Under the pieces are notes generated by a model. The model did no database searches, was not told the DNA's origin, and was given only the letters and a program-made list of their open reading frames with translations. From positions 1-64,000 of the forward strand of contig JBHLMN010000026.1 of assembly GCA_048938105.1 (NCBI GenBank): a DNA stretch of 64,000 nucleotides, read 5' to 3'. Within the stretch, counting starts at the first letter, position 1; the number at the start of each line of letters is the position of its first letter. Of the stretch, positions 21,668-25,074 are shown piece after piece. The stretch is from Promethearchaeota archaeon. Lineage in GTDB: Archaea; Asgardarchaeota; Heimdallarchaeia; Hodarchaeales; Hodarchaeaceae. The position numbers and the translations under genes are program-made.

Positions 21668-23263
21668 TTGGAAATTGAAGACCCTGAAGTGAAATGTGAC
21701 GTGTTAATTATTGGTTCTGGAATCGCTGGTTTATCTCTTGCTCTCAAAGTGGCTAGATTTGGGAAAGTAGTAGTCTTAACAAAGACAACACTGTCCAATT
21801 GTGCTACTGCTTTAGCTCAAGCAGGAATAGCTACAGTGTTTTCAAAAGAGGATTCCTTTGACATTCATTTACAGGATACAATGAAAGTAGGGGATGGACT
21901 CTCCCATTCAATAGTCGCTCGACAAATTATTTCCTCTGCACCTGATCGTATTCATGAACTAGCCTCATGGGGTGTCCAATTCTCGAAAAATGATTTAGGC
22001 GAATTCGATCTCGGATTGGAGGCAGGTCATTCACATCGTCGAATTGTACATGCTAAAGATATAACTGGGGCTGAAGTTCACCGTGCTCTTTGTACAGTAT
22101 TAATGCAGAACCCACAAGTTAAAGTCATTGAACATCACATAGCTATTAATCTAAAAATTCGTGCAGGACGTTGTTTGGGTGCTTATGTTTTAGATAAAAA
22201 ACAAGGATTCGTTAAAAATTTTCACGCAAAGGTTACAGTTCTTGCAACAGGGGGCTTGGGTAAAGCTTTTCTATTTACAAGTAACCCTGATGTCTCTAGT
22301 GGGGATGGTATCGCAATGGCATATCGTGCTGGTGCCACAATAATGAATATGGAATTCATTCAATTTCATCCTACATTGCTATATCACCCCTATGCCAAAT
22401 CCTTCTTGATATCAGAGGCCCTGCGGGGTGAAGGTGCACATTTGATAGACAATCAAGGAAATCGGTTTATGAAATCCTATGATTCTCGATTAGAACTAGC
22501 TCCACGGGATATCGTTGCTCGTGCGATCGATTCTGAACTGAAACGTACAGGACTAGATCACTTATATTTGGATATTACCTTTAAGGATCCTAATTTCGTT
22601 AAAAGTCGATTTCCAGGGATATACGATAAATGTCTTTCATTTGGAATTAATATTACAGAAGAACCGATCCCAATTGTACCTGCTGCTCATTATACAATTG
22701 GTGGAGTTAAAACAACAATATCAGGAGTAACAAATATCCCAGGTCTTTTAGCTATCGGAGAAACAGCATGTACAGGATTTCATGGGTCTAATCGTTTGGC
22801 TTCTAATTCATTATTGGAAGCAGCTGTTATGGCTCATTTTGCAGCTAAGACTTGTTACGATATTTTGCAAAAAGATAGAATGATTCAGTCTTTTTCCCCT
22901 TGGCACGCAGGAAACGCTGTTGACAGTGATGAGTCTGTGGTGGTCAGTCAAAACTGGATGGAGATTCGATTAATGATGTGGAACTATGTGGGAATTGTTA
23001 GATCTGACAAACGCCTTCTAAGGGCAAAAAAACGCATTCAATTACTTCAAAACGAGATTAACCAATACTATTGGGATTTTAAGATAACCTCTGATCTAGT
23101 GGAGCTCAGAAACCTCGCAGATATCGCTCAAATGATTATTGACTGCGCCTTCCACCGTAAGGAGAGTCGTGGTGTCCATTATACAGTTAATTATCCCCAT
23201 AAACGTCGAACAGCAAAAGATACCTTAATTAGGAAATCGGTAATGAGTGATGTTTTATCTTGA
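21668..23263 (+). CDS. nadB: L-aspartate oxidase
   Basis: GSGIAG FAD motif, QFHPT, LISEALRGEG, ELAPRDIVAR, PAAHY, HGSNRLASNSLLE, ESRG-x-HY. Confidence 0.95.
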   Translation: MEIEDPEVKCDVLIIGSGIAGLSLALKVARFGKVVVLTKTTLSNCATALAQAGIATVFSKEDSFDIHLQDTMKVGDGLSHSIVARQIISSAPDRIHELASWGVQFSKNDLGEFDLGLEAGHSHRRIVHAKDITGAEVHRALCTVLMQNPQVKVIEHHIAINLKIRAGRCLGAYVLDKKQGFVKNFHAKVTVLATGGLGKAFLFTSNPDVSSGDGIAMAYRAGATIMNMEFIQFHPTLLYHPYAKSFLISEALRGEGAHLIDNQGNRFMKSYDSRLELAPRDIVARAIDSELKRTGLDHLYLDITFKDPNFVKSRFPGIYDKCLSFGINITEEPIPIVPAAHYTIGGVKTTISGVTNIPGLLAIGETACTGFHGSNRLASNSLLEAAVMAHFAAKTCYDILQKDRMIQSFSPWHAGNAVDSDESVVVSQNWMEIRLMMWNYVGIVRSDKRLLRAKKRIQLLQNEINQYYWDFKITSDLVELRNLADIAQMIIDCAFHRKESRGVHYTVNYPHKRRTAKDTLIRKSVMSDVLS

Positions 23264-23352
23264 CAATGATTAAAATCATTTTCAAAGCAAAAACCTAAAG
23301 AAATATAGAGATATATAGTTAATTAGACAATTTTGAGGCAAATTTATTGTCA

Positions 23353-23517
23353 ATGGAAGAACTTCTCACAAAAGAAAATTATCCTGAGTTAGCTCAGCCT
23401 TGGGATATCCCGTGTATGATTTGTGATCATCTAGAAAAATGTAATATTGGTCAGGATTTTAATCCCATTGGATGTCCTTGGCTAAACCATTATTTGATGG
23501 TACAAAGTAAAGACTAA
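23353..23517 (+). CDS. 54-aa stand-alone RPC34/C39 / TFE-beta-like 4Fe-4S motif microprotein (not in ORF track)
   Basis: MEELLTKENYPELAQPWDIPCMICDHLEKCNIGQDFNPIGCPWLNHYLMVQSKD*; motif PC-x2-C-x5-C-x2-G-x4-P-x2-C-x2-L-x2-YL. An in-frame TAA at 23320-22 excludes a longer N-terminus. Alternative start TTG 23347 with GAGG upstream. Confidence 0.78.
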   Translation: MEELLTKENYPELAQPWDIPCMICDHLEKCNIGQDFNPIGCPWLNHYLMVQSKD

Positions 23518-23625
23518 TCTTTTTTAAAAGGTCTCATTCCTTATTTGCCAGAAATAAATCTACTTATTCTTAATTCGCAACTTATATCAGAAATCATTTA
23601 ATCAGTCAGATTTCTATCCCCTTTT

Positions 23626-25074
23626 ATGAAATTACTTCTTGTAGAACCACCCAAACAGTTTTGGTTTGTGATGGGGGAATATTTACCCCCTCCTTATAGC
23701 CTTCTTATTTTGGCAGCAGTAATAGAGAAGGAATTACCTGATGTTGATATTAAAATTATTGATTGTCAAGCTGAAAAGCTCGATTGGATGGGATTAGAAC
23801 AAAGGATTCAGCAAGAAAAACCAGATATCATTGGTTCTGGTAGTCATGCTACCTGTAATGTGTATAAAACGGTACGTACTCTTGATCTCGCAAAGCGATT
23901 AAACCCAGAAGTAATAACTATCACTGGTGGTTCACATTTTACAATGCTTGATGAGGAAACACTCAATGAATACCCAAGTATTGACATTATCATTCGATAT
24001 GAGGCAGAAAAATCAATTGTCGATTTATTAAGACACTTTCAGGTTCATGGTTGGTCAAAAGATCAATTAAAAAATGTTAAAGGAATAGCATTCAAACAAA
24101 ATGGTGAATTTCGAAGAACCCCTGATTATCCGCCACTCACAGATAATGAATTGGATGCATTACCTTATCCAGCATATCATTTACTTCCAGACATGAATTT
24201 ATATCATTTTGCTATGATGAGTGATGTTCCCTATATTCTCCTTGAGGGGTCGCGAGGTTGTACTCATAATTGTACTTTTTGCTCTCAAACCACATTTTAT
24301 CGCAGGCATTGGAGTACCAAATCAGTCAAAAGGATTGCAGATGAAATGGAATGGATGAGAGATACCTTTGGGAGTCGTTTCTTTTGGTTTACTGACGATA
24401 ATTTCTGTGGTGGAAAACCCCGACTAATTCGAGAACTGTGCCAAGAAATGCTTTCTCGAGGATTAAATGGTAATGAGATAGAGTGGTTCGCTCAAATGCG
24501 AGTAGATAGCATTCTGAAAGTAGGTGACGGCCTAACAGATATGAATCGAGCCGGCAATTATTGGCAGCTTGTGGGTGGAGAATCCCCAAAGAAAGACGTG
24601 TTAAATGGGTTCAAAAAAGGGATTCAAGGTAGTCAAACAGTCGAAGCAATTAAATTGCTAAGAAAGAATAATATTCTTGCTCAATTAATGATCATGATTG
24701 GTCATGAGAATGAGACACACGAAACGATTCAGGAAACTATGAAATGGGCGACAGATGTAGTGAAACCAGATTTTATAATTACAATGTTGGTTACTCCTTA
24801 CCCTGGAACACCACTATATGAAGATTTGTCCAAAAAAGGAAGAATAATCGATAATAATTGGACAAATTATGATATGATTCATGCTGTATGCGATATGAAA
24901 TATCTGTCCGCGACTGAACTACAAGAAGGGTTATATAAGGCATATCGCCACGTATATGACAGCTGGACTCGCCGCTTTGGGGGAATATTTGCTAAGAACA
25001 AGTATAAGCGAAGAATTTTTTGGTATTACTTCAAAGCAGGGGTTATTAGTCAACTAAAGCGATTAATTCCATAA
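23626..25074 (+). CDS. Cobalamin-binding radical SAM protein (class B methyltransferase/BchE-like)
   Basis: N-terminal B12-binding domain (PPYSL...GGSH), SRGCTHNCTFC, FTDDNF, TPYPGTPLY. Confidence 0.9.
   Translation: MKLLLVEPPKQFWFVMGEYLPPPYSLLILAAVIEKELPDVDIKIIDCQAEKLDWMGLEQRIQQEKPDIIGSGSHATCNVYKTVRTLDLAKRLNPEVITITGGSHFTMLDEETLNEYPSIDIIIRYEAEKSIVDLLRHFQVHGWSKDQLKNVKGIAFKQNGEFRRTPDYPPLTDNELDALPYPAYHLLPDMNLYHFAMMSDVPYILLEGSRGCTHNCTFCSQTTFYRRHWSTKSVKRIADEMEWMRDTFGSRFFWFTDDNFCGGKPRLIRELCQEMLSRGLNGNEIEWFAQMRVDSILKVGDGLTDMNRAGNYWQLVGGESPKKDVLNGFKKGIQGSQTVEAIKLLRKNNILAQLMIMIGHENETHETIQETMKWATDVVKPDFIITMLVTPYPGTPLYEDLSKKGRIIDNNWTNYDMIHAVCDMKYLSATELQEGLYKAYRHVYDSWTRRFGGIFAKNKYKRRIFWYYFKAGVISQLKRLIP

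Follow-up and report, generated by a model that had tools for sequence, protein, structure and literature searches.

An overlooked small gene of Hodarchaeales probably encodes a TFE-beta reduced to its iron-sulfur domain

The window analyzed here, a 64,000-nucleotide stretch of DNA from an archaeon of the order Hodarchaeales, contains a short open reading frame (ORF) with four regularly spaced cysteine codons, and the question raised by this locus is whether so small a frame is a gene and, if so, what its product is. The original prediction read it as a stand-alone iron-sulfur domain resembling the RPC34/RPC39 subunit of RNA polymerase III and archaeal TFE-beta, serving either as a minimal TFE-beta or as a redox-sensing competitor for TFE-alpha. 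TFE-alpha/beta is the archaeal, ancestor-like form of TFIIE and of the Pol III RPC62/RPC39 subcomplex, and the Hodarchaeales are a leading contender for the living lineage most closely related to eukaryotes. TFE-beta has been documented in Asgard archaea (PMC7289017), and the archaeal protein is built from a winged helix and an iron-sulfur domain (PMC4495717).

The small ORF and the elements surrounding it are located in the window as follows:

23347..23517, + strand: coding sequence of the probable winged-helix-less TFE-beta, giving 56 aa from TTG 23347 or 54 aa from ATG 23353
23515-23517, + strand: TAA stop codon of the small ORF
23413..23475, + strand: invariant cysteine codons, putative [4Fe-4S] ligands with the spacing CX2CX5CX10C (C21, 23413-15; C24, 23422-24; C30, 23440-42; C41, 23473-75; numbering from ATG 23353)
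23320..23322, + strand: upstream in-frame TAA that closes the frame
23335..23338, + strand: GAGG, a putative Shine-Dalgarno-like element 8 nt before TTG 23347
23301..23326, + strand: A/T-rich, TATA-like stretch read from the sequence, a candidate promoter of the gene's own; its sequence is not conserved among relatives
23520..23525, + strand: run of six T, 3 nt past the stop codon, read as a candidate archaeal oligo-T terminator
21668-23263: L-aspartate oxidase-type flavoprotein gene (nadB), upstream neighbor of the small ORF
23626-25074, + strand: B12-binding radical SAM gene, downstream neighbor, 109 nt from the small ORF

The Pfam labels of the flavoprotein and radical SAM genes were taken from the loci of relatives. 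The hidden 54-aa ORF at 23353-23517 (+) has the translation originally quoted and falls, as described, between nadB and the radical SAM gene. The claim that no winged helix is attached to it also holds, since an in-frame TAA lies 10 codons (30 nt) ahead of ATG 23353, the stop-to-stop frame has 64 codons, and only 19 residues precede the first cysteine. Most relatives start with MSM, and at the corresponding place the window reads TTG-TCA-ATG (23347-23355). This start context, with (A/T)TG as its first codon, is conserved among the relatives in the genus, which also keep GAGG (GGAT in one subgroup) at the same distance upstream. Because of this conserved context and the GAGG 8 nt ahead of it, the true start is probably TTG 23347 rather than the ATG; a 56-aa product beginning MSM would thus be likelier than one of 54 aa.

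We found 18 close homologues, of 53-90 aa, by word-index search. All those that bear names come from metagenome-assembled genomes of Hodarchaeota, Hodarchaeales or Promethearchaeota, and NCBI annotates them as 'hypothetical protein'. The alignment of close relatives has 17 invariant positions, among them cysteines 21, 24, 30 and 41, and the four cysteines are invariant in each of three alignments, i.e., the Hodarchaeales close relatives (A1), a wider family of 22 members (A2) and a deeper alignment (A5). The N-terminal 19 residues are likewise conserved and are specific to the order; M1, E3, L5, E8, Y10, P11 and W17 do not vary. In 17 genus-level coding sequences, 25, 14 and 45 of 48 columns vary at codon positions 1, 2 and 3, respectively, and the mean pS is 0.76, the mean pN 0.14 and the mean pN/pS 0.18 (136 pairs). 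The small ORF is therefore a real protein-coding gene under purifying selection. It escapes notice merely by its small size: it falls below the size cut-off for ORFs, and its relatives, where called, are 'hypothetical protein'.

Identifying the domain depended on profiles. The single 54-aa sequence had no match in Pfam (E up to 10), NCBIfam or the PDB sequences, and a search of the PDB with the A1 profile did not find the human Pol III subunit RPC6 (RPC39). The top match of that search, the LIM domain of Testin (E 0.008), was discarded as a chance match between cysteine-rich sequences, as the aligned columns miss the fourth cysteine. No longer fused forms were recovered by the word-index search, which is weak evidence, and an exhaustive representative search with the A1 profile later found distant short proteins together with longer ones (101-259 aa) that carry the motif behind a winged helix. 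With the A2 profile that includes the wider family, the best PDB match was human RPC6, residues 282-315, with all four cysteines aligned (E 2.7e-5); with the A5 profile RPC6 was again found and was the sole PDB match (E 2.2e-5). These alignments span 32-34 residues and take in the four cysteines, a glycine, a proline before the fourth cysteine and a C-terminal hydrophobic helix. The human motif that the original prediction had cited agrees with residues 284-315 of PDB chain 7a6h_P.

The expected similarity to the Pfam family RNA_pol_Rpc34 (PF05158) appeared in the relatives and below the threshold. The curated threshold was not reached by the 54-aa protein, which did not match the model; 9 of the 22 A2 members match the C-terminal end of the model, and the matches of relatives cover its last 35-60 positions, the best of them reaching E 7.3e-5 and 23-25 bits against a cut-off of 28.4. 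A direct comparison by hhalign of A1 with A4, an alignment of full-length Asgard winged-helix and iron-sulfur proteins taken from genomes, gave a probability of 97.8% (E 9.8e-13). A4 in turn matches RPC6 on both the winged helix WH2 (88-185) and the iron-sulfur domain (281-315), with E 1e-10. The cysteine spacing CX2CX5CX10C is also that of C92/C95/C101/C112 in the TFE-beta of Saccharolobus solfataricus. Sequence comparison thus places the small protein firmly as a homologue of the iron-sulfur domain of TFE-beta/RPC34, through a relation that depends on the intermediate sequences, and the resemblance first noticed is one of real homology.

Two structure- and feature-based searches were also run. 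AlphaFold2 monomer models were of low confidence (pLDDT 58 with A1 and 66 with A5), and Foldseek found no match to the monomer model in the PDB, a result that is uninformative for a domain of about 35 residues that folds around a cluster. The best score in an ESM Atlas feature search was 0.83; all scores were below 0.9 and serve as leads only, one of them being an archaeal cluster of 78 aa in which 41% of the members carry PF05158 (score 0.78).

We then asked how widely the domain and its short form occur. Searching with A2, the iron-sulfur domain was present in 285 of 300 Asgard genomes, nearly always with one match per genome. In the genus of the window (family f1), 16 of 19 genomes have a match, in open frames of 56-100 aa; in the sister family f2 of the same order both genomes have one, in frames of 65-107 aa. 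Each of these 18 positive genomes of the order has a single match, in a frame of 56-107 aa, and a full-length TFE-beta was found in none of the 18. Most genomes in the remaining families of the class and phylum match as well, in open frames of about 110-270 aa, and the translations of these longer forms show a winged helix N-terminal to the cysteine motif. One such form, P0037 (259 aa; L035:1312-2088, - strand; family f27), combines the winged-helix and iron-sulfur core with a lysine-rich N-terminal tail of about 70 residues, like that of histone H1 or HC2, and with C-terminal repeats of the AEK type.

Three genomes of the genus, G106, G216 and G291, yielded no small gene. Their completeness is 91%, 71% and 94%, respectively, and TFE-alpha is present in G106 and G216; the missing gene may reflect incompleteness or a dispensable subunit.

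Relatives were checked for signs that the ORF might be the broken tail of a full-length gene. In more distant Asgard relatives the domain does form the end of a winged-helix protein. The short form of the Hodarchaeales, however, is a derived, order-wide and evolved truncation, and neither an assembly artefact nor a pseudogene fragment, because it is intact, occurs throughout the order and is under purifying selection. The winged helix would have disappeared no later than the base of the order. Elsewhere, two Asgard genomes hold the domain in short frames without a plausible start (L060, G004:C141; L061, G006:C2), and the frame of L061 starts within the last part of a winged helix; these are probably full-length genes interrupted by a frameshift or an assembly break rather than true short forms.

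A second Asgard family, f25, has iron-sulfur-only forms of 81-85 aa (L057:1463-1705, +; L058:1608-1862, -; L059:1561-1815, -), of which the N-terminal part is different and probably disordered. This suggests that f25 lost the winged helix independently, and hence at least two such losses, one in the order of the window and one in f25. Further, more diverged short forms also bear Asgard names.

Gene order gave no link between the small gene and the full-length forms: none was shared with the full-length TFE-beta loci in five Heimdallarchaeia genomes, where the counterparts of nadB and of the ABC ATPase gene lie on other contigs. By its single-copy status, which is the one basis for orthology here, the small gene would be this genome's only counterpart of the TFE-beta of sister lineages.

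Taken together, these results favor the reading, to which we assign a probability of roughly 0.7, that the gene is the Hodarchaeales TFE-beta reduced to a linker and the C-terminal four-cysteine domain, i.e., a natural minimal TFE-beta. By analogy with Saccharolobus, its product would bind a cluster, bind TFE-alpha and take part in transcription initiation.

A partner for such a protein is at hand. TFE-alpha is encoded once in the same genome (G000:C52:343353-343973, minus strand, 207 aa), was found in 39 of 40 genomes of the class, and is single-copy in all members of the genus included in the search. We co-folded the small protein (with A1), the TFE-alpha of its own genome (P0041, with alignment A3) and a 4Fe-4S cluster. 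The predicted complex scored 0.69 compared to 0.00 for the best of three controls, a score that possibly reflects memory of the solved Pol III RPC3/RPC6 structures. The mark applied to such predictions was reached by 58 of 80 solved complexes and by 2 of 110 mismatched pairs, counts that are a rough calibration given the use of our own alignments and of a ligand riding along. The runs agreed in at least 88% of contacts, with a partner pLDDT of at least 72, and the predicted interface on TFE-alpha comprises residues 7-16, 114-128, 139-143 and 170-185. It takes in the C-terminal tail of TFE-alpha, which is necessary according to the work on Saccharolobus.

TFE-alpha of the genus (L063:1501-2121; A3) has features of its own. 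Compared to other Heimdallarchaeia, it contains an acidic insertion of about 20 residues, which separates the N-terminal helices from the recognition part of the winged helix, and its zinc ribbon shows Cys-x3-His in place of the Cys-x4-Cys found in those. These differences may reflect co-evolution with the truncated beta subunit.

The co-fold also bears on the rival that survives best, though we regard it as unlikely: that the protein descends from TFE-beta and has given up its role in initiation, having been repurposed as an iron-sulfur (or zinc) microprotein that acts as a redox sensor or as the partner of some other protein. Such a change would agree with the conserved, order-specific N-terminal 19 residues, with the loss of the winged helix, i.e., the part thought to face promoter DNA, and with the steady neighborhood of the gene, near which an ABC-2 transporter operon is found in four loci. 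These four loci, however, were drawn from a narrow clade in which gene order is conserved anyway, and in them the transporter is encoded on the other strand, either in convergent orientation or behind a further gene. The single-copy retention of TFE-alpha in all searched genomes of the genus and the modeled complex, well above its controls, both argue against repurposing, as does the fact that what has been kept is exactly the part that binds TFE-alpha in Saccharolobus (PMC4495717).

We also consider it improbable that the factor has been split, with the TFE-beta winged helix encoded by a separate gene and reassembling with the iron-sulfur piece or with TFE-alpha. Among all six-frame ORFs of the window's genome, hmmsearch with three profiles and phmmer with 19 single queries detected no separate TFE-beta-type winged helix below E 1e-3, nor does a winged-helix gene adjoin the small gene in the window or in the loci of relatives. 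The best PF05158 match in this genome, where that model has only weak matches, is a PadR-like regulator and was set aside. Two weak winged-helix matches (C35:89481-90056, E 0.002; C52:6419-6871, E 0.006) leave some room for a split factor, as winged helices evolve rapidly and easily escape detection, and the search profiles came from other Asgard families with low identity.

Of the two functions originally put forward, a minimal TFE-beta is the one that the evidence favors. The other, a redox-sensing decoy in competition with full-length TFE-beta for TFE-alpha, could draw on the domain being the dimerization module and on its cluster being oxygen-labile in Saccharolobus (PMC4495717, PMC7289017), but such a decoy would have nothing to compete with, and we hold it to be very improbable. 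The genome of the window is 99% complete and has only one match to the iron-sulfur domain, with neither a second copy of the domain nor a full-length TFE-beta, and the same search across Asgard genomes that recovered the domain in most of them yielded a single match per genome in the 18 positive members of the order.

Another reading, in which the gene encodes a cysteine-rich precursor (RiPP) or accessory peptide that serves the B12-binding radical SAM enzyme and is exported by the ABC transporter nearby, was suggested by a small cysteine-containing ORF directly upstream of the radical SAM gene with ABC-2 transporter genes beyond, and was rejected as hardly credible: the radical SAM gene adjoins the small gene in the window and L004 and is absent beside it in L005, L006 and L007, where the small gene is kept, so that there is no obligate co-occurrence with a maturase gene, the transporter is on the opposite strand, and the peptide is conserved over its whole length like a folded domain and is homologous to the TFE-beta iron-sulfur domain. 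In L005-L007 the place of the radical SAM gene is taken by an aldo-keto reductase gene or by nothing; the radical SAM gene at 23626-25074 (+) is a variable insertion within a neighborhood that is conserved in other respects.

Returning to the minimal TFE-beta, the experiments on Saccharolobus indicate how such a protein might work. The cysteine domain of S. solfataricus TFE-beta binds a [4Fe-4S] cluster, and a construct without residues 1-73 still dimerizes (PMC4495717). The winged helix is dispensable for dimerization, while the iron-sulfur domain and three of its four cysteines are essential, and a core made up of the TFE-alpha winged helix and the TFE-beta iron-sulfur domain is able to trigger DNA melting (PMC4495717). 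The beta winged helix contributes to the stability of the pre-initiation complex, which is strongly lowered by its deletion (PMC4495717). The Saccharolobus cluster is oxygen-labile (PMC4495717, PMC7289017).

By analogy with this TFE-alpha/beta, the four cysteines of the Hodarchaeales protein would hold a cubane [4Fe-4S] cluster around which the domain of about 35 residues folds. The folded domain would dock on TFE-alpha at the helix after the winged helix and at the C-terminal tail, and the resulting minimal TFE-alpha/beta core, seated on the clamp of RNA polymerase, would promote DNA melting. Elsewhere the beta winged helix further stabilizes the pre-initiation complex, a contribution that would be lacking here. 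The winged helix is a defining element of TFE-beta. Given that deletion of the winged helix so strongly lowers the stability of the complex in Saccharolobus, a subunit that lacks it may work differently or less well. TFE activity could moreover be sensitive to oxidation because the cluster is labile to oxygen, as proposed for Saccharolobus.

A broader and bolder proposal can be built on this scheme, and we offer it tentatively, as a possibility against which we lean on balance. The Hodarchaeales and at least one other Asgard lineage would initiate transcription with TFE-alpha and an iron-sulfur microprotein of about 55 residues; the DNA-facing beta winged helix would there be dispensable or replaced by some other factor, the oxygen-labile cluster of the free-standing microprotein would act as a simple global redox switch on initiation, and the eukaryotic TFIIE-beta and RPC34, rich in winged helices, could not stem from the Hodarchaeales state, a derived loss.

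In the literature searched, no description of a winged-helix-less TFE-beta was found for Hodarchaeales. If the minimal TFE-beta reading is right, transcription in this lineage seems to begin with a pared-down factor, and a natural beta subunit consisting of the iron-sulfur dimerization module alone mirrors the Saccharolobus construct by which the 'minimal TFE core' was defined. The eukaryotic stem must have kept a beta subunit bearing a winged helix, and the Hodarchaeales state is therefore a derived loss. Surveys of gene content may wrongly score Hodarchaeales as lacking TFE-beta because the gene lies below common ORF length cut-offs and is labeled 'hypothetical' where it is called. The protein also offers a very small and tractable system for studying how a cluster controls TFE assembly and, possibly, how transcription is controlled by redox state.

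Comparison with known proteins places this reading in context. The full-length TFE-beta-like proteins of other Asgard archaea (L037-L055, P0037) share with the Hodarchaeales protein the iron-sulfur domain, a W-D motif before the first cysteine and the presence of one copy per genome. They are about 110-185 aa long in the sampled full-length forms, with some of about 210-260 aa, compared to 54-56 aa here, and keep an N-terminal winged helix that matches WH2 of RPC6; that winged helix is lacking in the Hodarchaeales and in a few further Asgard lineages (f25: L057-L059, 81-85 aa).

Human RPC6 (POLR3F; PDB 7a6h, chain P) likewise has an iron-sulfur domain with four cysteines, at residues 282-315. 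Three winged helices precede that domain in RPC6, whereas none precedes it in the Hodarchaeales protein. RPC6 is a stable polymerase subunit paired with RPC3/RPC62, while the Hodarchaeales protein presumably pairs with TFE-alpha.

The nearest characterized counterpart is Sso0944 of Saccharolobus solfataricus (Blombach et al., 2015; PMC4495717), which has the same C-terminal four-cysteine domain with the spacing CX2CX5CX10C and is also single-copy. In contrast to Sso0944, the Hodarchaeales protein has no winged helix and carries the order-specific conserved N-terminal 19 residues, and its binding of a cluster and of TFE-alpha is predicted. In its architecture, the Hodarchaeales protein corresponds to the S. 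solfataricus TFE-beta deletion construct that lacks residues 1-73.
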